Assembly (NCBI GenBank): GCA_039208735.1
Contig: JBCCQY010000126.1
Coordinates: forward strand, 1 to 26,851
Source of the DNA: Myxococcota bacterium
GTDB taxonomy: Bacteria; Myxococcota_A; UBA796; GCA-2862545
Direction of reading: 5' to 3'
Length of the DNA: 26,851 bases
Shown here: positions 201 to 22,831 of the stretch, piece after piece
Layout: each line of letters opens with the position of its first letter
Position numbering within the stretch: position 1 is the first letter of the stretch
Program-made: the position numbers and the translations under genes
Notes under the pieces: generated by a model
Database searches by the model: none
The model's input: the letters and a program-made list of their open reading frames with translations, nothing else
What the model was told of the DNA's origin: nothing

Positions 201-947
201 TTACTTGCCCGTCCCGAAGACGGCGCGCATCACCATGGCAACTGGATCGTAGTACCGATCCACCACGCGTTCCTTGAGGGGAATGATGCCATTGTCGGTG
301 ATACCGATGTGTTCGGGGCACACCTCTGTACAGCATCGAGTGATGTTGCACATCCCACTTCCGAATTCGGAGCGGGTAGCCGGGATGCGGTCCTCCGTAT
401 CGAGGGGATGCATCTCGAGCTGCGCCACCCGAATCATGAACCGCGGACCCACAAACTGGTCGCGTTTGCCATGGTCACGCAGCACGTGGCAGGTGTCCTG
501 GCACAAGAAGCACTCGATGCACTTGCGGAACTCCTGCACCCGATCGACGTCGACCTGCTGCATGCGATAGTCCCCATCCGCGGGCCGTTCCGGTGGCTTA
601 AAAGGGGGAATTCGCTCGTTTTGCTTGTAGTTCCACGAGACGTCGGTCACCAAATCCTTGATGATGGGAAACGCCTTCATAGGCTGCACGGTAAGCGGCT
701 CGTCGACGGGATAGTCGGACAGGCGGGTCATGCAGGCGAGCTTGGGCTTGCCGTTGACCTCCATCGAACACGACCCGCACTTGCCCGCTTTGCAGTTCCA
801 CCGCACGGCCAGGTCCGGCGCATGTTCGGCCTGAACCCGATGCACGAGGTCGAGCACGACCATGCCCTCGTCCACCTCTGACGTGTACTCCTTGAAGGAG
901 CCCCCGTCTTTGTCGCCACGCCACACACGAAGAGTGCGATCAGCCAT
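201..947 (-). CDS. sdhB: Succinate dehydrogenase/fumarate reductase iron-sulfur subunit
   Basis: Fe-S motifs CKAGKCGSC...C, CIECFLCQDTC and CNITRCCTEVCP. ATG at 947 (MADRTLRVWRG) overlaps the sdhA stop. Confidence 0.95.
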   Translation of the reverse strand: MADRTLRVWRGDKDGGSFKEYTSEVDEGMVVLDLVHRVQAEHAPDLAVRWNCKAGKCGSCSMEVNGKPKLACMTRLSDYPVDEPLTVQPMKAFPIIKDLVTDVSWNYKQNERIPPFKPPERPADGDYRMQQVDVDRVQEFRKCIECFLCQDTCHVLRDHGKRDQFVGPRFMIRVAQLEMHPLDTEDRIPATRSEFGSGMCNITRCCTEVCPEHIGITDNGIIPLKERVVDRYYDPVAMVMRAVFGTGK

Positions 948-2781
948 TGGTGGGTCCCTCCATTTTCTCGAGTTCTTCGACGGTTGAATGCCCAATCTCG
1001 GCGAGTTCCGCGGGTGGGTCGGACCGCTCTAGTTTCGAGATGGCCATGCTGCCATCGTCCGCCTTCTGGATCACGAGGTTCACCTTGCCCCAATCCTCGC
1101 GCTCCCCTTCGTAATCGACGCGAGAGTGGGCGCCGCGGCTCTCTTGACGCATATGGGCGGCCCGAGCGACGGCTTCGGCGCACACGAGCAACGACGACAA
1201 GTCGAGCGCCTCGTGCCAGCCAGGATTGTATTGCGAAGAGCCGTGCGCCTTGACCTTCGCCACGCGCTCCTTCAGCTTCGCCAGTCCCGCGATGCCGTTC
1301 GACAATCGTTCGTCATCGCGCCAGATCCCCACGTCGTTCTGCATGAGGTCCTTGATTTCGTCGTGAAGGACATAGGGGTTCAGCCCGTCCTCACGGTTCA
1401 GCACGTCCCGCGCAGCCCCAAAGGACGCCTCAATGGCCTCGCCATCCATCTCGTTGGCGGCGCTCGACTCGAGGAACTCCTTGGCCCCGATGCCTGCGAG
1501 CCGGCCGAACACAATGAGATCGGACAACGAGTTGCCCCCAAGTCGGTTCGCGCCGTGCAGCCCCGCCGCGCACTCGCCACAGGCAAACAATCCTGGAACC
1601 CGCGTCATTTGCGTATCAGAATCGACCCGAATGCCGCCCATCATGTAGTGGCACGTCGGTCCGACCTCCATCGAATCCCGGGTGATGTCGAGCTCCGCCA
1701 GTTCTTTGAACTGGTGGTACATCGAGGGGAGCTTCCGCTTGATGTGCTCCGCATCCCGTCGGCTGGCGATGTCGAGGAAGGCTCCTCCGTGGGGCGAACC
1801 CCGGCCCGCCGCCACCTCGCTCATGATGGCGCGAGCCACGACGTCACGGGTGAGCAGTTCAGGAGGCCGTCGTGCCGTCATGTCGCCCGAGGCCCACCGA
1901 TCTGCCTCTTTGATGGTGTCGGCGGTCTCGTCCTTAAAGCGGGGCGGGATGTAATCGAACATGAAGCGGCGGCCCTCCGAGTTGAGGAGAATGCCGCCCT
2001 CTCCGCGCACCCCTTCCGTCACCAGCGTTCCCCGCACCGACGGTGGCCACACCATGCCCGTGGGGTGGAACTGGGTGAACTCCATGTCCATCAACTCGGC
2101 GCCCGCGTGGTAGGCCATGGCCTGCCCATCGCCCGTGTACTCCCAAGAGTTCTACGTGACGCGCCAGGCCTTTCCGGCCCCCCCGGTCGCCAGGATGATG
2201 GCTTTGGTGCGGAAGATGACGAACCGCCCCGACTCTCGCCAAATCCCCGTCATGCCCGCAATGCGGCCTTCCGAATCTTGAATGAGATCGAGGGCCCGGC
2301 ATTCCATGTGAACCTGAATGCCGCTGTGCACACCCTTGTCTTGGAGCGTCCGAATCAGCTCGAGCCCCGTTCGGTCGCCCACGTGGGCCAGGCGCCCGTA
2401 CCGGTGGCCCCCGAAGTTGCGTTGGTTGATCTTCCCGTCTTTCGTTCGATCAAAGACCGCGCCCCAGGCTTCGAGTTCGCGGATGCGGTCCGGGGCCTGT
2501 TGCGCGTGCAATTCGGCCATGCGCCATTGGTTAAGGAACTTGCCCCCCCGCATCGTGTCGCGAAAGTGCACCTTCCAATTGTCGCGTGGATCGGTATTCC
2601 CCAACGCCGCTGCGGCTCCGCCCTCGGCCATGACGGTGTGCGCTTTGCCCAGCAGCGACTTGCATACAATCCCGGTGTCGAGGCCTTGACGCGAACACTC
2701 GATCGCCGCGCGAAGGCCCGCTCCACCAGCCCCCACCACGATCACATCGTGCTCGATGGTCTGAATCTCAGATAGGTCCAT
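940..2781 (-). pseudogene. sdhA: Succinate dehydrogenase/fumarate reductase flavoprotein subunit interrupted by one in-frame TAG at 2152-2154 (nonsense mutation or base-call error)
   Basis: Track ORFs 2152..2877 and 940..2118 share one frame and read ...GKAWRVT*NSWEYTGDGQAMAY... Motifs GAGGAG, KAHTVMAEGG (covalent-FAD His), QFHPTG, TEGVRGEGG, RDVVAR, HYMMGG and HGANRLGGNSL are all intact. ATG at 2781 overlaps the upstream TGA. Confidence 0.9.
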
Positions 2782-3611
2782 CAGAACGCTCCCCAGGTAT
2801 TGAGGTCCGTGATCACACCCATCGAAACAAGGCGAACGTAGAGATCCGCAAAGAGGATCCAGTACAGACTCAACCACGCGAACTGCATGTGCCGCGCATT
2901 AAGCCAGGATGAAGGACGCCAAAGGTTAAATCGAGCACGCTCGATGCCGCCACACGAAAAGCAGTTCAGCTGGCCGCCGACCAGGTGCCGCCACGCGTGA
3001 CAACCCAGAGTGTAGCCCGTCAACAAGATCGCGTTGACCAAGATGATGACGCTGCCCACTCCCACACCGAACTGACCGTTGTAGAAGAAGCCCTGCGCCG
3101 CCTCGTAGAAGAGAATCGGCAGGAGAAGGAGGGCGAAATAAAGGGTGTAGCGGTGAAGATTCTGAAAGATCAGAATCGTGGTTTCACCAGTATAGTTGTT
3201 TAGTGGAACTCCTTGCACCGCGCAGGCGGGAGGGGTTCCGAAGAACGACCGGTAGTAGGCCTTGCGGTAGTAGTAGCACGTGGCCCTAAAGGTAGCGGGA
3301 AACAGGAAGATGAGCAGAGCCGGTGAGGCGGGAATCCACTCGGGCCACCAAGAAGGCCAGACACCAAACCAGGCGTGTTCGACCGGGGCCGACCCTACGG
3401 CGGTGATGTCGGTGAACAGCAGAGGCGCGTAGAATGGCGATAGGTAGGGACCCACGTAATAGTGCTGGGCCTGCAGGGCCGCCCAGGTGTAGTAAATGCC
3501 CCAAGCGACCAGGCCCGCAAGGGTTAACGTTGGTCCGACCCACCATTGGTCCGTCCGGGTGGTGGCCCCGAACCCCCGGGTGTGGCCACCGACGTCAGCA
3601 ACGTTGCTCAT
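2781..3611 (-). CDS. Succinate dehydrogenase membrane anchor, mycobacterial Sdh1 (Rv0249c-like) type
   Basis: About five hydrophobic segments. Motifs FRATCYYYRKAYYRSF, PPACAV, FQNLHRY, GCHAWRHLVGG and NARHMQFAW. SD GAGGAG upstream; first gene of the operon with sdhA and sdhB. Confidence 0.85.
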   Translation of the reverse strand: MSNVADVGGHTRGFGATTRTDQWWVGPTLTLAGLVAWGIYYTWAALQAQHYYVGPYLSPFYAPLLFTDITAVGSAPVEHAWFGVWPSWWPEWIPASPALLIFLFPATFRATCYYYRKAYYRSFFGTPPACAVQGVPLNNYTGETTILIFQNLHRYTLYFALLLLPILFYEAAQGFFYNGQFGVGVGSVIILVNAILLTGYTLGCHAWRHLVGGQLNCFSCGGIERARFNLWRPSSWLNARHMQFAWLSLYWILFADLYVRLVSMGVITDLNTWGAF

Positions 3612-4792: not shown

Positions 4793-4914
4793 GCGGACCC
4801 ACCGCCCCGTCTCGAACTCCGTTGCCGCAACGACGGCTGCCTCTTTGGCCGCCTCATTGTTGGAATCGGATTCGTGCGCTCGGAGGCACGGGGGCTGAAG
4901 CAAACGCGACGTCC

Positions 4915-4979
4915 CCCCCTCCGAGCGAAGCTCGAGGGGGCAGGGAGGTCTCCTCGGGCACCACCACCCAAAGGAGACC
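4915..4979 (+). promoter_or_regulatory. Structured 5' leader of the EF-Tu paralogue: two tandem hairpins, the second sequestering the SD
   Basis: Hairpin A 4915-4940: CCCCCTCCGAGC-GAA-GCTCGAGGGGG with one bulge. Hairpin B: GGTCTCCT (4947-4954) pairs perfectly with AGGAGACC (4972-4979), covering SD AAGGAG (4971-4976) 7 nt before ATG 4984. Confidence 0.6.
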
Positions 4980-4983
4980 CGTC

Positions 4984-6153
<1,170 letters not shown>

Positions 6154-6180: not shown

Positions 6181-6221
6181 GCGCCGTCGACCTCCCTGGA
6201 GGTCGGCGGCGCTTTGCGTTT
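6181..6221 (+). terminator. Rho-independent terminator after tuf, possibly also serving the convergent gene
   Basis: 14-bp stem GCGCCGTCGACCTC / GAGGTCGGCGGCGC (one G-U), 4-nt loop CCTG, then TTTGCGTTT. Lies between convergent stops at 6153 and 6221. Confidence 0.8.
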
Positions 6222-7342
6222 CAGGGCAAATGCGGCCGCACGGCCCGCACGAGCCGAAAGCCAATGTTCGGGGACCCTGCCGCCGACCAGTGCGAGCCAC
6301 CCCATCTCGCAACCACATGACGTCCCATGCGAAAGCTCACTCGAACCGCGTACGCCGAATCGGACCATGATCCCCCCCGCAACACGTACTGCTCGGGCTC
6401 TTCGGGAGGCTCTAGCGTCTCGTCGGTGACCGCTCGGTACGCCAACGCCCAATACGGGTCGCTCGTCCACTCCCAAACCCCACCCGCCATGCCGTAAAGA
6501 CCGTAGTCGTTCGGCGGAAGCGTCCGGGGGTCGCGAATCGCGAACTGGCCCATGTGGTTTGCATCGCACCGTTCTCGGGTGGGAGGCGCATGGCCCCAGG
6601 GGTAGGGCGCATCGATTCGACCGCCGCGTGCGGCCTTTTCCCATTCGGCCTCGGTAGGCAGCCGATACACGGAATTCGGCGTGGACAGCTTGGCTGCGAG
6701 CGCCATCGCCGCCTGCCGACTGACCGCCACCATGGGCTTTCGATCGTAGGCCCAAGGCCGTTCGGGATGCGCGCGTTGCGGCGTACCAAATGCCTCCGAG
6801 GCCGCCACGAGTTCTCCGTTTCGTCGCCAGGTCAAATGCGCCGCATGCGCATGCCAGTCCCGGGCCGCCTCCGTCTCGGTTTCGCAGTACTGAAAGCGGA
6901 TCTTGTTGGAATTGGAGATCGCGAATCCCTCATTGTCCTCCACATCCGAGGGCATCGCTCCGTCGGGCGGGGCAGACCAGCCGTTGAGGTGGCAGAACGC
7001 AGCCCACGTCATGGGCACCTCCGCGACGTGATAGGCCGCCGTGCGTACGCGGTGGACCGGCCGTTCATCAGGGTCTCCGTCCTCGGACCCCATCCGGAAG
7101 CTGCCCGCCGGAACGTAGCGAAACAAAAGGCCATGCTCCTCGACCGCCAGCGAGTCGAGCAGCGACGTCCGCCGCAGGGCGATGGATGCATCGTCGGGAG
7201 CAAGCCCAAACGCCCTGTCCAAGGCCGAAGCGGCGAGGTGAAGGTCACCCTGTTCGAAAAACCAATCCGCCGCGACGAGTGCCTCACCTGGGTCGCCGTC
7301 CGGTCCGCACGCCTCGAGCACCCGTTCTGGATCGAACCTCAT
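6221..7342 (-). CDS. FGE-sulfatase (SUMF1/EgtB/PvdO-fold) domain protein with N-terminal TPR-like helices
   Basis: FRMGS..DPDERPVH, YRLPTEAEWEKAARGG, PNDYGLYGMAGGVWEW, VLRGGSW, NIGFRLVR. ATG at 7342 overlaps the rSAM stop (ATGA). Confidence 0.9.
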   Translation of the reverse strand: MRFDPERVLEACGPDGDPGEALVAADWFFEQGDLHLAASALDRAFGLAPDDASIALRRTSLLDSLAVEEHGLLFRYVPAGSFRMGSEDGDPDERPVHRVRTAAYHVAEVPMTWAAFCHLNGWSAPPDGAMPSDVEDNEGFAISNSNKIRFQYCETETEAARDWHAHAAHLTWRRNGELVAASEAFGTPQRAHPERPWAYDRKPMVAVSRQAAMALAAKLSTPNSVYRLPTEAEWEKAARGGRIDAPYPWGHAPPTRERCDANHMGQFAIRDPRTLPPNDYGLYGMAGGVWEWTSDPYWALAYRAVTDETLEPPEEPEQYVLRGGSWSDSAYAVRVSFRMGRHVVARWGGSHWSAAGSPNIGFRLVRAVRPHLP

Positions 7343-8595
7343 CGGTCGACCACCACGTTGGTGGAAGGATGGCGGTCTTGGCGAGCCCTCCACTCCTCGT
7401 ACCAGGGGTCGGGCGCATCGAGGTGACCGTTAAACGTCTGGGCCCGGGCCCGGCAGCCCCCCTCAAACCCACCGCAGCCGTCGCAGCCCAACTGGCGCAA
7501 CGCGGTGAATCCCTCACTTTCATTCCAGATCTGCGTGAAGGAGGCGGCATCGAGTCGACCCGCCACCGCGCCCGGACCGAGGAAGCTACAGGGGCTCACC
7601 TCACCGGAAGACGACACCGACGCGATGAGGGTTCCTGCCCCACAGCCCTTTCCTACGAATGTCCGGGCCTGCAGCGTCTCCCGGATCTGCGGCGAAAAGG
7701 GATCGATGGCATGCAGATCGCTCGACTCGGGATGCCACATGGCCAGGCGGTCCAGCGCATCGGCGTAGGCATCGTAAGACGGCATGAGGTCGAGGTGCGC
7801 CATCGCCGTGCCCACTGGGTAGAGCGGGCGAAACACGGCCGTATGGGCGCCCAATGCCTTGGCAAGCTTCGCGCAGGCCTCGACCTCCGAGGCCAAGGGA
7901 GTGGTGATGGTGAAGGCCAAGGTAAACCGAGCGTGGCGAGAGAGAAGGCGAATCTTCTCGATCGCACGATCGAAGGTTCCGGGACCTCGAATGCGGTCGT
8001 GGGTGGCCGCAGACGCCCCATCGAGGCTCACATTGAGCCACATGAGGTCGCGCCGGCCCAACTCCTTCGCCCAGTGCTCATCGAGGTGAAGCCCGTGCGT
8101 GGTGAGGCACGGGTGCAGCCCTTGGGCCGTCGCCGCATCCACGATCTCGAGCAGATCGCGACGCAACAGCGGTTCGCCCCCGGTCAAGCCAAGCCGGAAG
8201 CTCCCCATCGCGGCCAACTCCACAAACAACGCCTCCATGGCGTCCAAGGAAAGGGCGCCCTTGCGGGGTAGTTCACCCGCAAAACAATGGGCACAGGCCA
8301 AATCACAGGCAGCGATGACCTCGAGATGCACCGCGAGCGGCCCCAGCAAGTGAGCGGCCGGCGGATGGGCCTCGACGACTTCGGCGTCGAAGCGACCATT
8401 GAGATCGAAGAAGCCGCTTGGCTCGAGAGCCTCGAATAGGGCCGGTCCATCGGGCAGGGAAAACAGAGGAAGGTCAATGGCTTCGCGCAACCGTACTGTC
8501 ACCGCATGGTCAAACGGAAGGTAGCGCGAACGACGCCGGTCGAAGACCAGACTGCCAAAGTGTTGGGGCACGAGTACCAAGGGTCGCCGGCTCAT
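7339..8595 (-). CDS. Radical SAM/SPASM enzyme (MftC/PqqE-like) with N-terminal RRE/MftB-like extension
   Basis: CDLACAHC (CX3CX2C), LTGGEPLLR, VSLDG, HDRIRGPGTF; C-terminal CGAG...GEVSPC...IWN...CDGC...GGCRARA...DP. ATGA overlaps at both ends. Confidence 0.9.
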   Translation of the reverse strand: MSRRPLVLVPQHFGSLVFDRRRSRYLPFDHAVTVRLREAIDLPLFSLPDGPALFEALEPSGFFDLNGRFDAEVVEAHPPAAHLLGPLAVHLEVIAACDLACAHCFAGELPRKGALSLDAMEALFVELAAMGSFRLGLTGGEPLLRRDLLEIVDAATAQGLHPCLTTHGLHLDEHWAKELGRRDLMWLNVSLDGASAATHDRIRGPGTFDRAIEKIRLLSRHARFTLAFTITTPLASEVEACAKLAKALGAHTAVFRPLYPVGTAMAHLDLMPSYDAYADALDRLAMWHPESSDLHAIDPFSPQIRETLQARTFVGKGCGAGTLIASVSSSGEVSPCSFLGPGAVAGRLDAASFTQIWNESEGFTALRQLGCDGCGGFEGGCRARAQTFNGHLDAPDPWYEEWRARQDRHPSTNVVVDR

Positions 8596-9170
8596 ACGGG
8601 CTCCACGTCCAAGACGCCACGCAGGACGACGCGAGGCCCCATGACGCGCAACGGCGGGATGCCGGATTCAACGATGCGCCGAAACCGCCAGCCCACATTG
8701 GTTTCGAGTGCATCGTAGAGGGTCGTGCCGTCTTTGCACGCCGCCCATGCGGCTACCTCCGTCTCCGGGGCCGCCCAGCCCTCAGGAGGGCTGCCATGCC
8801 AGCGCCAATCGCGACCCGGCCGTATCTCAGGACGGGGTTGTTCGGTCGTTTGGGGAGCAAAGGCGAACGCGAAAGGACTGGGCTCTTCAGGCAAGGCGAC
8901 AAGCTCAACCGCGATGACGTGAGCCCCGGGTGAAAGCTGTACCCACAGGTTGGTCACGGGCGCCCCGTCGATCCAAACCGCGACCTGGCCCAAGGTGGCG
9001 ACGCGGAGGTACCCGTCCACGCCCAGGGTGGGATCCAGCCACCGCAGCACCACGCCTCCGCAGCCGGCGGGGACTTCGCAGTGGCTGTGTTCTTCAAGTA
9101 CCACCCGAGGGGATCGCTTGGTCAACGCATACAACGTGTTGATGCGCAGGTCTTCGTCGTCTCGACTCAT
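8592..9170 (-). CDS. Hypothetical protein with N-terminal LEEHSHCEVPAGCGGVVLRW motif and a beta-sandwich-like domain (192 aa)
   Basis: ATG at 9170 with GGAGG upstream; stop overlaps the rSAM start. C-terminal part (VAVWIDG, LSPGAHVIAVEL, WRW...PPEGW...W) resembles carbohydrate-binding beta-sandwich modules. Confidence 0.75.
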   Translation of the reverse strand: MSRDDEDLRINTLYALTKRSPRVVLEEHSHCEVPAGCGGVVLRWLDPTLGVDGYLRVATLGQVAVWIDGAPVTNLWVQLSPGAHVIAVELVALPEEPSPFAFAFAPQTTEQPRPEIRPGRDWRWHGSPPEGWAAPETEVAAWAACKDGTTLYDALETNVGWRFRRIVESGIPPLRVMGPRVVLRGVLDVEPV

Positions 9171-9184
9171 CGCGCCTCCCGCCG

Positions 9185-10006
9185 TCAGCTCACCGCCCGG
9201 GCCACCACGATGAGCAGCGCCACGAAGAGGGCAAGCCCCGCGACGAGCCACGCCACCCGCCATGGACTGATCGGCGCTTCACCATACGATCGTCCCGTCT
9301 GCCCATTCACGACGAACCGGTACGGCATGTCGCGATAGCGATACACGCCGACAAACACGGGAATCAGGACCGGTTCACCCTTCAGATCGTGCACCGAAGC
9401 ACTGGGGCGAATCTCGATCAACGCCCGCTGTCGCGCAATCGCGTTGGCGTGCCGTTCAGCGATTTCCGATCGGGCGTGGTCTCGGGCCGCTTCGCGAGTG
9501 ACCGTCGAGACTTCGAAGTCGATGTCGGTGGCATCAGGGTCGAAGGGCTCGAGCGTGGTGAGGAAGGAGCCCAACGCACGGAGTTCGGCCTGGGTCAACG
9601 CCGCCGATCCCGGAATCAGGACATGGGTGAACCGATCCGTCACCTTGCCCGACACCGGCTCCTTTCCCGATGCCGTCCTCGCCGAGACCAAACCGGTGAA
9701 GTGGGTTTCCACCGTCGCCGAAAACGCCCAAGCGGGAACAAAGATCCGCCGCAACTCGAGCTTCGCCTCCCGCAAGTCGGACGGATAGAAAAGAGAGGAA
9801 CCAGAGAATCGACGAAACTCATCACGGGTTTCGTCCTCGGAACGTACGAACGGCCCCACCCCCATGGGACGTTCGATGTCGGCGTCGACCGCAACCAGAT
9901 CCCTGGCATCCGCCCCACAAAACAAACAGGTGGGAAACGACCGTCCGGGTGCAGCAGACACCGCACCACCGCATTGCGTGCAGGACACCGCCGAAATCGT
10001 GTTCAA
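9185..10006 (-). CDS. Zinc-ribbon membrane-anchored protein (YdjG-like), paralogue 2
   Basis: TTG at 10006 overlaps the upstream TGA, SD GGAGGGAG. CTQC...CLFC; C-terminal LIPVF...YRFVVNGQTG...GEAPIS followed by a TM helix. Confidence 0.75.
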   Translation of the reverse strand: MNTISAVSCTQCGGAVSAAPGRSFPTCLFCGADARDLVAVDADIERPMGVGPFVRSEDETRDEFRRFSGSSLFYPSDLREAKLELRRIFVPAWAFSATVETHFTGLVSARTASGKEPVSGKVTDRFTHVLIPGSAALTQAELRALGSFLTTLEPFDPDATDIDFEVSTVTREAARDHARSEIAERHANAIARQRALIEIRPSASVHDLKGEPVLIPVFVGVYRYRDMPYRFVVNGQTGRSYGEAPISPWRVAWLVAGLALFVALLIVVARAVS

Positions 10007-10899
10007 CCGCTCCCTCCCAATCCCACCAGCACTGCCATCAAGACGAGCCCCAACACCATGAGCAGCCCCACCTTGCGCCAGCTGGTAGGCACCTCTCCTG
10101 TGGTCTGGCCGGTCTGGCCATTCACCAACAGCCGCAGCTCTCCGTGGGGCGAGGGCACAACGGCGATCCAAACCGGCAAAAGAACGAGTCGAAAGCCGCT
10201 CAACTCCAGCTTGGTCCGGCACCGCACATCGCCCGTGACATCACCGGGAAGATGGCGTTCTCGAACCTGGGTTTCGGCACGATCTCGCACGCTTTGACGG
10301 GCGGAGGCTTCGGCCGTCGCATGGTCGATCATGGGCCGTTCGGCTTCCAGACCCGCCACCCGCGCCGCCGACCACGGCACGCTACGGCCCAGATCGTACG
10401 GGGCAAGCCCTCGCATCTCGGTGTCCGAAAGGCCTCGGCTTGCGCTTACCAGGTGGTCAAACCACTGTCCCTTGTGGCTCCCCGAAAGGTCATGCCAGTC
10501 CGTTTCCTGCACCCGCCGCGTCTTTTGGACCGACTTACCGCCCTCCATCGCGGTGTAATGTTCGGTTCGCCACCAGTGAATGCCCACCGTGGCACTGAAG
10601 CGGGTCTCCGTCTCAGCATCAAAGGCGTAGAACGGCACAAGCACGGAACGCAACGAAGAGGGGGACGTGGCCTTGCGCACCGACTCGGGGGCAAACCAAC
10701 GTCCGGCTAGGTAGCGCCTCAGCGCTCGCGCCGCCCGTTCACGCTCGACGGTGAATGAAACCACCCGCTCGACCGGTTCCTCATCGCCATTTACATCGAC
10801 CAGAGGACTGTCGCAGAAGGCGCAGCGCAGCGAGAGCGTTTCGTCGGGCAACCGGACCGTAGCCCCACAGTTCTCGCACCGCCGAACGTTCGCGGCCAT
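10003..10899 (-). CDS. Zinc-ribbon membrane-anchored protein (YdjG-like), paralogue 1
   Basis: CENC...CAFC, WFAP, VPFYAFD, LLPVWI...VNGQTG...GEVPTSWRK followed by a TM helix. SD GGAGGGG. Confidence 0.8.
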   Translation of the reverse strand: MAANVRRCENCGATVRLPDETLSLRCAFCDSPLVDVNGDEEPVERVVSFTVERERAARALRRYLAGRWFAPESVRKATSPSSLRSVLVPFYAFDAETETRFSATVGIHWWRTEHYTAMEGGKSVQKTRRVQETDWHDLSGSHKGQWFDHLVSASRGLSDTEMRGLAPYDLGRSVPWSAARVAGLEAERPMIDHATAEASARQSVRDRAETQVRERHLPGDVTGDVRCRTKLELSGFRLVLLPVWIAVVPSPHGELRLLVNGQTGQTTGEVPTSWRKVGLLMVLGLVLMAVLVGLGGSG

Positions 10900-11460: not shown

Positions 11461-13485
11461 TCAACCCCCGCAACCGTCGCAAGCATCGCCTTCGAGGTAG
11501 CCGAGCCTGCACAGGGCGCACTGTTCTTCTTGGGACTGCCCTTCACGGGCCACCTGCGGCACCTCCGCCCCAAGCGACGGCAGCTGAAGCTGGACAATCC
11601 AGTCCATCAGCTTGGATTCGACGTCCAGGCGGGCATCCGGCTGCACATTGGCGAGGTTCCGCTGCTCTCCGACCTCGAGGTGGAACAAGAAGGTTCCGTC
11701 CTGGTCGTGTTGAACGAGCTTGAAAGGGCCATCGCGGAACGTACGGTATCGCCCGCGCGGGTTGACGAGCGCACCCTTGCCGTTGGCCGTTCCCTCTGCG
11801 AAGCGTGCGGACAGCAAGTGCTCTTCGAACCGCTCGGCAATGACAGGCTGCCCCACGCGTTCGGCCTTGGCACGCGCGTCTTCCTCACACGGGAGCTTGG
11901 CCTCTACTTTGAGCGCCTCACAGGCTGAAAAATCGGGAATCGCACGTAGCAGATTCTGCACGAGTACGGTTCGAGGCGTATCCAACCCGGCCAACGCCGT
12001 AAGCGTGGCGAAGGTGCCGACCGTCGAGACCGGCTGTTCGATGACCACTCCGGCCGGAACGTGGCCCGGGTAGCGGAACACCAGGGGCACACGAAGGTCC
12101 TCTTCGACCACGGCCGAAAGATGCCCGAACGCACCATGCTCTCCGACAACCTCGCCGTGGTCGCCCAACACGACGACGACCGTGTCATCCAGGGTGCCGG
12201 CGTCGCGCCAGATCTGCATCACATCGCCCACAAGCGCGTCGGTGTAGCGAACCCCCCCGTCGTACATGTCGATCATGGGTTCACGAATTTCTGCGATTTC
12301 CGCATCGCTTAGCAGACGCCCCATCTGGGCCCCGAACGCGAGCTGATCGGCATGCTGGAGCGTCGAGGAGCGACGGTTCTGAAAGGCGGTGAGGTACTCC
12401 TCGGGCAGCTGGTGGAATGGGAAGTGGGCCTCGAGGAAATTGACGAACACGAACGCAGGCCGGTCCGTGCGCTCGGCCATCCACTCTTGAATGTTGCCGA
12501 CGACCTTGCGACCGCCCTTGTCGTCGACCCCACCAAGGCCCAGATGATCGAGGAGCCGGAACACGAAAGTGAACTGGCGCGCTCCTTCGCCTGACGCCCA
12601 CGCCTTGTCGCAAGCGTCGAATCCACGGGTCAATCCAAACGATGCGCTGATGTGGGGGTTGGCCGAAAAGCAGCGTGTTTCGTAGCCGGCCTGGGCAAAG
12701 ACCTCCATGATCGTGGGCAGTCGCTCATCGAGGTAGCGGGTCTCGCCATGGGCCTGGTGCACGGAAGGAAACGTGCCCGTGAACAAGGATGCATGGGCCG
12801 GCAGGGACCAGGTCGCGGGAGCCGTTGCCTGGTCAAACCGAATGCCTTCGGAGGCCAGCTCGGTCAACACCGGAGTGGTGGGGCGACCGTAGCCGTAGGT
12901 CGAGGTGCTCTGGGCGCGGACGGTATCCATGACCACGAACAGCACGTCGGGCGCGCCTTCTCGGGCCGCTGGGCGGTCGATCACGACGGCGGGCTCGGAT
13001 TCACCTGAGGGCTGACCCAACGCGATGAGTTCGGGCACGGCGAGGAATACGACGTGGACGATGGCTGTGACACCCGCAATCGCGAGCGGCGCCCGCTTTG
13101 GGGCGATGCTCACGAGCCAAGCGCCTCCCGCGTAGAAGATCGCCCCCAAGACCGGACCCGCCAGCCACATGAGCGGCTTGGCCGGATCGACGGCCACCCA
13201 CCGTTCCATGACGAGCCACAGCACGATCAGGAGGCCCGCTGCGAGCCAGGGGCCCCGTCGACGGTCTGCCATCACCACTGGCGTCAACGCAGCACCGACG
13301 GCGATCGCCATCATGAGTTCGAGCACCACCGCCTGGACCGCAAACCAGGTGTGCGGAGGCTGGCCCAGAGCCACGATGAGCCCAATCCCGTTGCCCAAGT
13401 GCACGGTTGCGATGGCTGCGCCGACCCCCAGCCCCACAAGAAGTGCGGTGACAAAGGGATTTGTTGATTGGTCTTCGCTTGTCAA
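11461..13485 (-). CDS. Membrane-anchored sulfatase/alkaline-phosphatase superfamily hydrolase or transferase
   Basis: N-terminal TM bundle, then VVMDTVRA, WSLPAHASLFTG, NFLEAHFPF, YDGGVRYTD, GDHGE, GH, VPLVFRYPG and C-terminal LGY. Probable TTG start at 13485 (GGGGA upstream); the longer track start overlaps the divergent LRR gene. Confidence 0.85.
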   Translation of the reverse strand: MTSEDQSTNPFVTALLVGLGVGAAIATVHLGNGIGLIVALGQPPHTWFAVQAVVLELMMAIAVGAALTPVVMADRRRGPWLAAGLLIVLWLVMERWVAVDPAKPLMWLAGPVLGAIFYAGGAWLVSIAPKRAPLAIAGVTAIVHVVFLAVPELIALGQPSGESEPAVVIDRPAAREGAPDVLFVVMDTVRAQSTSTYGYGRPTTPVLTELASEGIRFDQATAPATWSLPAHASLFTGTFPSVHQAHGETRYLDERLPTIMEVFAQAGYETRCFSANPHISASFGLTRGFDACDKAWASGEGARQFTFVFRLLDHLGLGGVDDKGGRKVVGNIQEWMAERTDRPAFVFVNFLEAHFPFHQLPEEYLTAFQNRRSSTLQHADQLAFGAQMGRLLSDAEIAEIREPMIDMYDGGVRYTDALVGDVMQIWRDAGTLDDTVVVVLGDHGEVVGEHGAFGHLSAVVEEDLRVPLVFRYPGHVPAGVVIEQPVSTVGTFATLTALAGLDTPRTVLVQNLLRAIPDFSACEALKVEAKLPCEEDARAKAERVGQPVIAERFEEHLLSARFAEGTANGKGALVNPRGRYRTFRDGPFKLVQHDQDGTFLFHLEVGEQRNLANVQPDARLDVESKLMDWIVQLQLPSLGAEVPQVAREGQSQEEQCALCRLGYLEGDACDGCGG

Positions 13486-13579
13486 GTCAGATTCCCCGTC
13501 TACTCGTCCAGCATAGCGTTCCCCTCCGTTGACTTGCAGACTCGAGCGAACGCGTGTTGAAGTTCCATATGAGCACTGC

Positions 13580-15232
13580 GTGAAGACGCTGCACGACGAA
13601 CTGCGCGCTTCCCCCGATGACGAGTCCATGTGGCTGGTCTTCGCGGATGCGTTGCTGGAGAAAGGTGACGTCCGAGGCGAGATCATTACGCTTCGGCATC
13701 GCCTCGACACCGCCGTGCTGCCACCCGAGCAGCTCGACGCCATCACCTGGCGAATCCACGAGATTGAAGCCACTTCTCATTGGCAGTGGCACCATGAGGT
13801 GCGCCACCTGCCGGCCGAAGAGCTGCACTGGCAGGCAGGGTTCGTGCGCGGGGTTCGCCTTTCCTACGGACCGGCAACCGAAGAAACGTTGGCCACGTGG
13901 CTCGACCACCCTGCAGGTGCCTTGCTGACGACCCTGGAGTTCCTCGAAGACCGCTCGCTTGGCAATGAACAAGCCAGCGCGCTTGCAGGCTGGCCCGTAC
14001 TCCAACGCCTCACCGAGCTTCGACTCCGCCGGACCGCGATTGGGGGTCCCGGAGCCCGCGCGTTGGCGAGTTCGCCCTTCGTGTCGCGACTGCGCCGCCT
14101 CGACCTCCACAGCAATCACATCCACGCCGAGGGACTGCGCGCCCTCGTTCAATCCGAGTCGTTGCGGGGACTCGTCCACCTGGATGTGGGCAACAATCTG
14201 CTGGATGAGACCGCCACCGTGGCGCTGGCTCGCGGTGGCATGGCGGACCTCGAGTCCCTGGACCTCTCGAGCAACCACATCGGTACCGAGGGCGTCCGCA
14301 CCCTTTCGCGCTCCGAAGCCCTTCCACGACTCACCTCTCTCGAACTCGGCCGGAACCACCTCGACGACGAAGCGGCGAGAGCGCTGTCCCACGCACCGTT
14401 CTGGCCCCAGCTTCATTCGCTGAACCTGTCGAACAACCGGCTGGGCGACAAAGGAGCCAACGCACTGGCCACGGTCGAGGCCCCCGCCCTTCGCCTGCTC
14501 CGCCTCCAAAACAACGTGCTCGGTCCCCAAGGGGCGCAGGCGTTGGTGGGCGCGGGCCTGGTCTCACAGCTCCGCCACCTCGATTTGCGTGGCAATCGGC
14601 TGGGTCCGGCCGGGGCCACCGCGTTGTCGCAAGCGACAAACCAGAACCTTTCGGTGCTCGTTCTCAACGCCAACGAAATCGGCGACACCGGACTGCGGAT
14701 GCTCGCCACCTCATCGTTGATGGGCGGCCTTATTGAGCTGTCGCTCGGCCGAAATCACATCGGCGATCGGGGCATTCAGGCCCTCGCTCGGGCACCTGGG
14801 CTCGCCTTACGCTCGCTGCACCTGTGGCACAACGATCTCGGTCCACTCGGGGCCAGCGTCCTCGCCAAATGCCCGTCGCTCCTGTACCTAGGCCACCTCG
14901 ATCTCGGGGGAAATCGGATCGGCAGCGAGGGCGTGACGGCCATTGCGCGGTCCGAACACCTCAGTCGGCTTATGAGCCTGGAGCTGTGGCACGCCAATGT
15001 GGGAGATGCGGGCGCGGAGGCCCTGGCGACCGCCGACCACCTCAAGCGGCTGCGCCACCTCGACCTAAGCTACAACTTCATCTCGGATTGCGGCGCGGTG
15101 GCGTTGTCGAAGGCTTCGTGGCTTGGCCACGTGAAGACTTTGGTCCTGCGTCGCAACGACATTGGCCAAGATGGTCGAGATGCCTTGCGCCGGGCCGCCC
15201 AAGACCATCCCGGCCTGCGCATCGAGCTGTAG
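13580..15232 (+). CDS. Leucine-rich repeat protein with N-terminal TIGR02996-like repeat-companion domain
   Basis: N-terminus ASPDDESMWLVFADALLEKGDVRGEII and a GFVRGV motif, then about 16 repeats of 26-27 aa (LxxLxLxxNxIGxxGAxALA). Probable GTG start at 13580. Confidence 0.88.
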   Translation: MKTLHDELRASPDDESMWLVFADALLEKGDVRGEIITLRHRLDTAVLPPEQLDAITWRIHEIEATSHWQWHHEVRHLPAEELHWQAGFVRGVRLSYGPATEETLATWLDHPAGALLTTLEFLEDRSLGNEQASALAGWPVLQRLTELRLRRTAIGGPGARALASSPFVSRLRRLDLHSNHIHAEGLRALVQSESLRGLVHLDVGNNLLDETATVALARGGMADLESLDLSSNHIGTEGVRTLSRSEALPRLTSLELGRNHLDDEAARALSHAPFWPQLHSLNLSNNRLGDKGANALATVEAPALRLLRLQNNVLGPQGAQALVGAGLVSQLRHLDLRGNRLGPAGATALSQATNQNLSVLVLNANEIGDTGLRMLATSSLMGGLIELSLGRNHIGDRGIQALARAPGLALRSLHLWHNDLGPLGASVLAKCPSLLYLGHLDLGGNRIGSEGVTAIARSEHLSRLMSLELWHANVGDAGAEALATADHLKRLRHLDLSYNFISDCGAVALSKASWLGHVKTLVLRRNDIGQDGRDALRRAAQDHPGLRIEL

Positions 15233-21556: not shown

Positions 21557-22831
21557 ATGCCGAGGACCTTCGACTGGCCGAAGCTCGAAGATGAGCTTGT
21601 CCGGATCCTCGAGAATGGACCGGACGCGGGCCCGGAACTCGCCGAAGCCCTCGCCATAAGCCAGCCGTCATTCTCCCGGCTCATTCGACGCGTCGACGAG
21701 CGCGTTGTGGCCTTTGGACGAGCCCGTCACCGACGCTACGGCCTGCGTCGTCCGGCGGCCTTCGGCAACCCCGTTCCCGTCTACGACATCGATGCCCATG
21801 GCCAGGTGCGCCAGCGCTTTACGATCGATGCCATCGTGCCGTCGGGTCTCACGGTGGATGGAAACCGCGTGAAACCGGATGTTTTCGATGATTTACCGTG
21901 GTTCTTCTGGGCCCTACGGCCTGCGGGACGACTGGGTCGGCGCGTGCCCCGCCAACTGCAAGGATGGCCGGCCGTCCCGGCGTGGTCCGCCGAACAGACC
22001 GTGACCTATGCCCGGCAATTTGGGTGGGATCTCCCTGGGGGCTTCGTGGTGGGCGACGCAGCATTGGAGCAGGCCCAAGCCCGGACCCTTGAACCGGTGG
22101 ACTACGCGGCTCGTGCTCACGACACCGACGTCCATGACCCCGGCAGCTGGGTAGGGGGCATGCATCCCAAGTTTCTGGCGCCCGCGAAGATCGTCAAGTT
22201 CTCCCCTCCCCGATCCGACGCCGCTGGACGACGCACCGCCGACTTGCTGGTCGCGGAACATCTCGCGCTTACGATTCTGCAAGAAGCAGGACACGACGCA
22301 GCGCCGACATCCATCATCGAGGACGACGACCGGACGTTCCTCGAAGTGGAACGGTTCGACCGAACCCCGAAGGGTCGACGGTCCTGGGTCCCATTGGACG
22401 CACTCACGCCCACGTTGGGGGAAGGGTCGAACACGACGAGCGGGTTAGCGACGCGCCTCCTCGTACGACAGCACATCGACGAAACGACGCTGCGCGCCAT
22501 CCGGTTTCGTGCGCAGTTTGCCGAGTGGATCGCATGCGCGGACGAAGGGCGGTCCACCCTTGGCTTCTTCCTAAAGGGACCCACGCTCGTCGGCTTGGCC
22601 CCCGCGTTTGGGCTTGGGCCGTCGGCTTATGCCGAACCGCACCGCGACCCCGAGCTTCCCGTGCGCGTAGCGCTCCCGTCAAATGCCGACGTCGCACCCG
22701 CCGCGCATGCTGCGGCCGTTCGCTTCTGGCAGACCGTGGATGCCGACGGCCGAATGTCTTCGGAGTTCCGAGCCATCGCGGACCGGCGCATCGCACGCCT
22801 TGCCCGCGTCCGGCTGGCGACGCCCGATTAG
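21557..22831 (+). CDS. YjjJ/HipA-family kinase-like protein with N-terminal HTH and degenerate catalytic motifs
   Basis: ELAEALAISQPSFSRL (HTH), GRARHRRY, LPWF...RPAGRLGR, GSWVGGMHPKF, VKFSPP, DLLVAEHLAL, FLEVERFDR, LAPAF. Confidence 0.82.
   Translation: MPRTFDWPKLEDELVRILENGPDAGPELAEALAISQPSFSRLIRRVDERVVAFGRARHRRYGLRRPAAFGNPVPVYDIDAHGQVRQRFTIDAIVPSGLTVDGNRVKPDVFDDLPWFFWALRPAGRLGRRVPRQLQGWPAVPAWSAEQTVTYARQFGWDLPGGFVVGDAALEQAQARTLEPVDYAARAHDTDVHDPGSWVGGMHPKFLAPAKIVKFSPPRSDAAGRRTADLLVAEHLALTILQEAGHDAAPTSIIEDDDRTFLEVERFDRTPKGRRSWVPLDALTPTLGEGSNTTSGLATRLLVRQHIDETTLRAIRFRAQFAEWIACADEGRSTLGFFLKGPTLVGLAPAFGLGPSAYAEPHRDPELPVRVALPSNADVAPAAHAAAVRFWQTVDADGRMSSEFRAIADRRIARLARVRLATPD

Follow-up and report, generated by a model that had tools for sequence, protein, structure and literature searches.

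A contig of 26,851 nucleotides from a Myxococcota bacterium (JBCCQY010000126.1, assembly GCA_039208735.1; referred to here in its entirety as the window) carries three consecutive genes on its minus strand that appear to form a self-contained, co-inherited cassette and may encode a system for the modification of a folded protein. The first open reading frame (ORF) of the three (9170-8592, 192 amino acids, with GGAGG located 5 nt before the ATG at 9170) encodes the putative substrate, here called the motif protein, a homologue of which is MXAN_3457 of Myxococcus xanthus DK1622. The second (8595-7339, 418 amino acids) encodes a radical S-adenosylmethionine (SAM) enzyme with a fused domain resembling the recognition elements (RREs) of peptides that are made by ribosomes and modified after translation (RiPPs) and with a SPASM domain predicted to be reduced to one auxiliary cluster, and the third (7342-6221, 373 amino acids) encodes a protein that combines a TPR-like hairpin with the fold of the formylglycine-generating enzyme (FGE; SUMF1). 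The three ORFs and the ATGA overlaps that join them, at 8592-8595 and 7339-7342, are as described in a first-pass annotation made from the DNA alone, and the nearest relatives of the window enzyme (74% identity) are found in metagenome-assembled genomes of Myxococcales.

Linkage and distribution of the cassette

A scan of 185,579 species genomes for the exact pattern CEVPAGCG gave 100 confirmed relatives of the motif gene, the best 80 of which underlie the linkage counts. The radical SAM clade adjoins the motif gene in 76 of these 80 loci and the FGE clade in 72, with the cassette genes nearly always overlapping or lying no more than 75 nt apart; the motif gene is first in every locus, and the order of the other two is swapped in five. 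The reverse test, made on 80 enzyme-centred metagenome loci (of 467), found the motif gene in 57 of the 59 that include at least 750 nt of upstream sequence. Of 401 genomes belonging to the window's phylum, four contain the full-length motif gene and the same four contain the enzyme, and the cassette is thus rare and patchy in this phylum. The co-occurrence of the three families, which the first-pass annotation had proposed as a check, is borne out by these counts.

Two of the four loci that lack an adjoining radical SAM gene stop at a contig edge, and in another the motif copy is truncated amid mobile-element genes, in a genome that showed no radical SAM or FGE gene of the respective clades. 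In the remaining one, genome G407, all three genes are present, but on separate contigs (C873, C802 and C538; loci L071 and L175) and with other neighbours. Locus L128 retains the FGE gene although no motif gene was found nearby, and in locus L149 (659-3268; also L147 and L148) an insertion that contains a transposase-like ORF breaks the radical SAM gene near residue 328.

One search gave 240 homologues of the motif protein and an index-free one 342 clusters at 50% identity; the record titles of cassette carriers span at least seven phyla (Myxococcota, Actinomycetota, Planctomycetota, Acidobacteriota, Armatimonadota, Eisenbacteria and Vulcanimicrobiota), and in M. xanthus DK1622 the cassette consists of MXAN_3457 and the next two genes. 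No relatives were found in viral contigs. Pairwise distances are correlated among the three genes (Spearman 0.42-0.61), which can be explained by shared ancestry alone. No fourth gene is conserved: any other neighbour family is limited to at most 12 of 81 loci. A raw RNA run from a close relative shows first mates on the opposite strand in 12 of the 13 bins that cover the cassette and a strand flip over the convergent neighbour, above a two-strand background of ca. 20-30 reads, and three RNA contigs start within 75 nt of the first cassette start codon; this suggests that the cassette is transcribed at a low level in that relative, though not necessarily as one transcript.

The motif protein, the enzyme and the FGE-fold protein

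The motif protein carries a loop, CEVPAGCGG (residues 31-39, 9054-9080), that is probably the modification site. It lies inside the motif stretch (residues 25-44) that had been placed correctly at 9039-9098 in the first-pass annotation, and is positioned by AlphaFold2 between two predicted strands (24-28 and 41-45). The nine residues are exact in 229 of 242 homologues; Cys37 is kept in all 242, Glu32 in 241 and Cys31 in 240, and Pro34, Gly36 and Gly39 are likewise nearly or fully invariant. Over 77 sequences, identity is 100% for residues 31-39, 40% for the leader and 22% for the body. The constant part is thereby CEVPAGCGG and not the HSHC segment that had been proposed as the core, the histidines of which vary (His28 in 149 and His30 in 212 of 239 homologues). 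Because 141 loci encode the motif in 112 different nucleotide spellings, the constraint acts on the protein; a DNA or RNA element behind the conservation was rejected, as synonymous sites vary freely. Variants of the motif occur in P0124, P0130, P0143, L156 and L157, two of which have lost Cys31 and kept Cys37 and three of which have Gly38 replaced by Ala. Across the family the protein mostly contains two to four cysteines.

The loop is preceded by a leader-like segment (residues 9-16, 9123-9146) with an invariant Asn11, recognized from alignments and from its predicted contact with the RRE, and followed by a beta-sandwich body (residues 47-192, 8595-9032). When the motif protein is modelled alone, residues 1-40 are of low confidence (pLDDT, the predicted local distance difference test, 61-77 by block) and the body is mostly of high confidence. 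The modelled body matches the non-catalytic domain of a Streptomyces alpha-L-rhamnosidase (3w5n; Z 8.2, root-mean-square deviation (rmsd) 3.2, 113 residues aligned) and a Pleurotus lectin (6kbj; Z 8.1), modest values that nevertheless point to a CBM67-like or rhamnose-binding lectin sandwich fold, a reading also backed by a profile match to 3w5m (E 8e-7) and by the ESM Atlas. A match to NF041573 occurs in 26 of 55 family members; no Pfam or NCBIfam model names the family, Foldseek returned nothing for the motif protein at E ≤ 0.001, and a single-sequence search of the PDB gave nothing useful.

This arrangement raises the alternative that the loop represents a RiPP core attached to a carrier domain and would be excised after modification by unlinked proteases to yield a small molecule or cofactor, as is the case for pyrroloquinoline quinone (PQQ) or mycofactocin. 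The body is indeed weakly conserved and also turns up in other, long proteins that lack the motif, the enzyme core resembles those of MftC and PqqE (see below), and caspase or trypsin genes flank 8 of the 80 loci. Excision is nevertheless very improbable: no peptidase or transporter is a conserved neighbour among the related loci, where the 75 flanking proteins scanned are heterogeneous, and the strand that follows the loop (VVLRW) is conserved, with a predicted structural role. Free short forms of the motif protein do not occur as a family either, since the six short matches are all N-terminal pieces of the usual protein. In agreement with the first-pass annotation, which had found no free small precursor nearby, the 809 small ORFs that lie no farther than 700 nt from 81 cassettes form clusters among close kin only and yield no conserved one. 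Longer forms (a 339-residue fusion and a 371-residue form with tandem bodies) appeared in the index-free search; a separate scan in which no longer fused form scored is weak evidence against such forms.

The enzyme belongs to the SPASM/Twitch group of the radical SAM superfamily because it combines the CxxxCxxC cluster motif (Cys97, Cys101 and Cys104; 8284-8307; 99% conserved among 74 enzymes) with a match to PF04055 (E 5e-20) and with matches of fold; the match to SPASM models is weak. Residues His90, Glu92, Arg134, Asn188 and Arg256 are invariant in the family. The Pfam Radical_SAM domain begins at residue 92, in line with the ca. 85 extra N-terminal residues noted at first pass, and the first 75 of these (8371-8595; block pLDDT 89-97) are predicted by AlphaFold2 to form three strands (6-11, 14-19 and 24-28) followed by helices (30-38 and 50-60), with the middle helix shortened in the window copy. 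Whole-chain alignments span this domain, starting at model residue 4 for SkfB (Z 30.3, rmsd 3.4, 348 residues aligned) and at residue 3 for SuiB (Z 28.3, rmsd 3.4, 363 residues aligned), at 14-21% identity to the solved maturases. Its most frequent profile matches are to four RRE hidden Markov models (daptide RRE, lasso PqqD, PqqD_rel_X and MftB), all weak (E 0.017-0.11) and each seen in two or three of 40 members; searched alone, the RRE profile found no RRE among PDB sequences (chance matches only) and no Pfam RRE family. Topology, superposition on the N-terminal domains of SkfB and SuiB and these weak matches together support the original assignment of the extension as RRE-like.

The resemblance of the enzyme core to MftC and PqqE, also proposed at first pass, is seen in the top NCBIfam matches, AhbD (E 3e-39; 135 bits against a cut-off of 500) and MftC (E 2e-37; 129 against 265), the MftC model scoring 148-175 bits for family copies in five actinomycete genomes. 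An assignment as prokaryotic viperin (PADLOC pVip) was rejected, as the matches cover the shared core (89-219) only and an RRE and an auxiliary domain are present.

The SPASM domain that had been annotated is retained in part (7402-7644). Three cysteines, Cys318, Cys336 and Cys381, are kept in 74 of 74 enzymes and align with the ligands of auxiliary cluster I (AuxI) in CteB, whereas the stretch corresponding to auxiliary cluster II (AuxII) contains no cysteine in 87 of 127 parsed enzymes, keeps a CxxC in 8, and persists in the window copy as a remnant (Cys371 and Cys374). Where listed, the residue after the final DP is Trp in every case. Judged by these alignments, the domain is degenerate, lacking the canonical set of seven cysteines for two auxiliary clusters, with its AuxII ligands apparently lost. 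The six active-site-proximal residues, at the positions defined in PMC10288494, are F, T, T, S, S and F, and when compared with CteB and StsB only, share three of six with the former and two with the latter. In a divergent member at locus L027 (4252-6176) all AuxII cysteines are kept, and no FGE partner turned up in the genome, which is of 3.7 Mb; this form is possibly ancestral. Some actinomycete enzymes (e.g. in L061, L048 and L037) end in short tails rich in Cys, His and Gly, with repeated HGSCG-like units in L061, which possibly bind metal.

The third protein was annotated as a TPR-FGE fusion. Its FGE domain is clear (residues 77-366, E 4e-39; present in 55 of 55 aligned members; fold match to 6muj at E 8e-41), but a TPR_14 match is made by 20 of the 55 members and not by the window copy. 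Both catalytic cysteine positions of FGE are replaced, with Asp and Val aligned there (relative to 6muj, 2q17 and 5nxl), so that the two copper-binding catalytic cysteines after the RGGS motif are missing and a role as an FGE-type tailoring enzyme, which had also been suggested, is unsupported. The Asp is found at the same catalytic position in PorK, and one place past it 76% of the family have a single Cys (Ser in the window copy). A family-specific insert contains Cys153 in 94% and WHAH in 79% of members, features that may represent a metal site, though not one constant across the family. FGE-fold domains also serve as ligand-binding modules in conflict systems (PMC7159879), and the FGE-fold protein is plausibly a non-catalytic binding partner.

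The modelled complex and the proposed chemistry

The enzyme and the motif protein were modelled together with two clusters and SAM, alongside three controls. The complex scores 0.71 (best control 0.01); the mark for this score was attained in 116 of 157 solved pairs and in 2 of 215 mismatched ones, figures that are only rough here (own alignments, ligands included). The runs agree in at least 49% of contacts, the partner has a pLDDT of at least 77, and 233-254 contacts are made. At the predicted interface, partner residues 9-14 and 16 contact RRE residues 21-32, partner residues 54-76 contact RRE residues 55-70, and partner residues 41-42 contact barrel residues 252-255; partner residues 32 and 36-44 are listed in the confident interface alongside enzyme residues 90, 134, 318, 336 and 381. 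From this co-listing we infer that Cys37 may pair with AuxI. The model supports binding rather than catalysis. The earlier proposal that the N-terminus of the neighbour is the substrate accordingly stands as far as the predicted placement goes, with the leader on the RRE and the cysteine loop at the opening of the active site, where it would probably be modified.

An interface of this size would also be expected if the motif protein were a permanent subunit that caps the barrel on its open side, lending a cysteine to the auxiliary cluster or replacing the lost AuxII ligands, in a complex whose target is a small molecule or the FGE-fold protein. The pairs with the lowest error are made by the folded body and by strand 41-42, not by the leader, the genes are in 1:1 translational coupling, and the enzyme has lost its AuxII cysteines while its partner bears Cys-x5-Cys, a spacing that occurs in the SPASM motif (PMC6231123). 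Against such an arrangement, Cys37 does not vary even when a fourth AuxI cysteine is present in the enzyme or, as in L027, a full AuxII set, and the engagement of an N-terminal leader by an RRE is the usual mark of a peptide substrate. CrpA and CrpC likewise mix leader and domain contacts, yet CrpA is a substrate, and the low confidence of residues 1-40 in isolation is as expected of a segment ordered on binding. A permanent subunit is, on this evidence, unlikely.

The reading favoured here is that the enzyme binds its folded neighbour through the RRE-like domain and installs an intramolecular thioether in the CEVPAGCGG loop, with the FGE-fold protein as a non-catalytic partner. Taken whole, this proposal has about an even chance of being correct; that the loop is a substrate at all is quite probable. 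In the proposed sequence of events, leader residues 9-16 and body strands 54-76 would dock on the RRE, and loop residues 36-44 would enter the barrel opening beside the AuxI cysteines. Cleavage of SAM would then generate a 5'-deoxyadenosyl radical that takes a hydrogen from a loop residue, and a loop cysteine would be joined to the resulting carbon centre with AuxI accepting an electron, for a loss of 2 Da per link. Two links are candidates, the first between Cys37 and Glu32, both of which are in the confident interface of the model, and the second between Cys31 and the alpha-carbon of Gly36, an i to i+5 connection as in the inner Cys-Gly ring of StsA/BlaA. Precedents exist for both the substrate and the chemistry, as RRE-bearing radical SAM enzymes form thioethers on the proteins QhpC (by QhpD) and CrpA (by CrpC; PMC13692751), and the Cys-x4-Gly sactionine is made by MftC-like enzymes (PMC10288494). 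The modified product would likely remain a protein, and one may guess that it forms a binding or signalling module with the FGE-fold protein.

Several points weigh against this proposal. The model lists interface residues rather than Cys-Fe distances, with Cys31 outside the confident contacts, and its score may stem partly from likeness to solved RRE-leader complexes (CteB-CteA and SuiB-SuiA). In CteB, AuxI has an open site that is bound by a substrate cysteine (PMC6231123); in the present family, an open site would not be general because position 325, which might supply a fourth ligand to AuxI, is occupied by Cys in 76 of 127 enzymes (Ala in the other 51, the window copy having three cysteines). 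Cys31 is absent in 2 of 242 homologues, and two loci (L119, 4899-6326; L128, 4980-6296) encode a family enzyme with no motif gene within 5 kb upstream. Finally, the similarity on which the collection of homologues relied is dominated by the motif, which the genome scan required to be exact, and the apparent invariance of the motif is inflated as a consequence.

The motif protein could also be the substrate of a chemistry other than thioether formation. Cys37, for example, could be converted to an aldehyde in the manner of anSME and might thereafter be bound by the groove of the FGE-fold protein, or the side chain of Glu32 could undergo an oxidative decarboxylation like those that the related MftC and AhbD carry out on their substrates. 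The cysteine at position 325, where present, would fully ligate AuxI as in anSME (PMC6231123), and AhbD and MftC are the top named matches, though far under cut-off. The near-invariance of Glu32 is also consistent with such a reaction, as are His90 and Arg134, which are invariant in the barrel and within the modelled interface, and an active-site profile that matches neither CteB nor StsB. On the other side, the motif differs from CxPxR, which is the sulfatase signature, and no sulfatase is found among the conserved neighbours. Moreover, likeness to MftC over the full length gave a wrong prediction for StsB, a sactisynthase (PMC10288494), and the two conserved cysteines and their Cys-x4-Gly spacing match the thioether precedent. 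A different chemistry on the same substrate is rather unlikely.

Genomic setting and relation to known systems

In 8 of the 80 genome loci (L022, L046, L037, L044, L047, L050, L060 and L061) the cassette lies co-directionally inside EAD7-coupled operons, flanked upstream by caspase-EAD7, or by trypsin-EAD1 and EAD1-EAD7, and downstream by an EAD7-STAND ATPase (EAD7-STAND-TPR); EAD7 also occurs at one of the 80 metagenome loci (L121). The EAD7-context loci fall in two separate actinomycete clades of a quick tree. Close Streptomyces kin account for six of the eight and the context is missing from most loci, so that a role in biological conflict is no more than a lead. A more ambitious reading, which we consider improbable, is that the enzyme, its active-site profile being unlike those of CteB and StsB, equips a cytoplasmic protein of lectin fold with a new crosslink or cofactor derived from the protein itself (e.g. 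a decarboxylated Glu, or two interlocked rings, Cys31-Gly36 and Glu32-Cys37), and that this protein and the FGE-fold protein together would act as a sensor or effector in EAD-coupled immunity systems of multicellular bacteria.

In the window, the cassette is bordered by a short, divergent EF-Tu-like gene (4822-6153, plus strand) that stands alone and is convergent on it. The hairpin between them (6181-6212), which the first-pass annotation took to close the operon, is real (14 bp, z -5.2), but its U-tail lies on the plus strand and, by consensus, it is likely the terminator of the convergent tuf-like gene rather than of the cassette, which it could close only if bidirectional. On the other side, 14 nt upstream of the cassette, two paralogous zinc-ribbon proteins (9185-10899, minus strand; 26% identical) have C-terminal hydrophobic segments and no Pfam match; their genes were rejected as part of the cassette, being present in 0 of 80 related loci, as was a nearby sulfatase gene, which is not a conserved neighbour in related loci. 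Farther away are a succinate dehydrogenase-like operon (201-3611, minus strand) with its flavoprotein gene split over two frames (2152-2877 and 940-2118), a frameshift or assembly error, a membrane-anchored sulfatase-family protein (11461-13773, minus strand), a leucine-rich-repeat protein (13529-15232, plus strand) and a HipA-like kinase gene (21557-22831, plus strand) inserted between 2-oxoacid dehydrogenase and lipoyl synthase genes.

By working principle, the nearest known systems are QhpD/QhpC and CrpC/CrpA. QhpD is likewise an RRE-bearing radical SAM/SPASM enzyme paired with a protein that has an N-terminal leader and is encoded by an adjacent gene, the quinohemoprotein amine dehydrogenase gamma subunit QhpC, on which it makes Cys-Asp/Glu thioethers (PMC13692751, PMC11951088). 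The candidate substrate of the cassette is, in contrast, a lectin-like sandwich of 190 residues with one two-cysteine loop; the enzyme lacks AuxII, an FGE-fold partner is present, and the dehydrogenase subunits, the QhpE protease and QhpG are not conserved nearby. CrpC of Methanococcus voltae (TIGR04463) also combines an RRE-bearing radical SAM enzyme, three AuxI cysteines, a protein substrate and recognition by both leader and domain-domain contacts, but binds three clusters, where the cassette enzyme lacks AuxII ligands, and CrpA is Cys-rich, with ten CxxQ/D repeats of a kind absent from the motif protein.

StsB/StsA and BlaB/BlaA (NF045574) resemble the cassette in having an MftC-like enzyme with three AuxI cysteines in the same spacing (18 residues between the first two in StsB as in the cassette enzyme) and a Cys-x4-Gly inner ring in StsA/BlaA that matches the Cys31-Gly36 spacing. 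The identity to StsB is, however, 26% over 268 residues (NF045574 at E 2e-23, its cut-off being 625 bits), the peptide StsA is short and free, and StsB keeps AuxII, uses a separate RRE and differs at active-site residues 3, 5 and 6. The solved RRE-fused maturases of RiPPs, SkfB, SuiB and CteB, include the best structural matches (SkfB and SuiB, RRE included), but their substrates are short peptides accompanied by protease and transporter genes that the cassette lacks; SkfB also has a single auxiliary cluster, which in the cassette enzyme seems to result from decay of a full SPASM domain (with the GGC cysteine kept) and not from the CxC of SkfB.

MftC (TIGR03962) and AhbD (TIGR04545) are the highest-scoring named families, and some database copies of the enzyme are automatically named MftC, but the MftC score is below cut-off and neither an MftA-type peptide nor other mycofactocin genes are conserved nearby. 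The anaerobic sulfatase-maturating enzyme anSME is structurally related to the cassette enzyme (Z 24.7) but has no RRE, and the likeness of the third protein to FGE is one of fold, in the absence of its catalytic cysteines and of a conserved sulfatase neighbour. The cassette is also distinct from a classical RiPP cluster, with no short free precursor and no linked protease or transporter. As it departs from QhpD, CrpC, MftC, StsB, FGE and classical RiPPs in the features compared, it appears to represent an undescribed family with its own architecture.

No literature was found on the motif string, on MXAN_3455-3457, or on the triad of radical SAM enzyme, SUMF1/sulfatase-modifying factor and RRE, in a search that most subscription papers lie outside. 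The text passages and supplements searched of Kaur et al., 2020 (PMC7159879) describe other radical SAM and FGS associations and not the triad. Ten family accessions are absent from the 14,550-row compendium of RRE-bearing radical SAM enzymes in PMC10288494, which contains the CteB control; some of the accessions may postdate it, and one (Q1D6S0) lacks the N-terminal domain.

If the proposal is correct, the cassette would be a new protein-modification system, in a field where proven RRE-guided radical SAM modifications of whole proteins are very few; a 2026 paper describes their validation as limited and names QhpC and CrpA (PMC13692751). Its large family, at 342 clusters across at least seven phyla, would offer a clean target, a nine-residue invariant loop, that precursor-mining tools made for short peptides would overlook. 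The enzyme may serve as a natural experiment on the need for AuxII, and, with three genes sufficient for a test in Escherichia coli and the cassette carried by M. xanthus DK1622, both the chemistry and a phenotype would be open to experiment.

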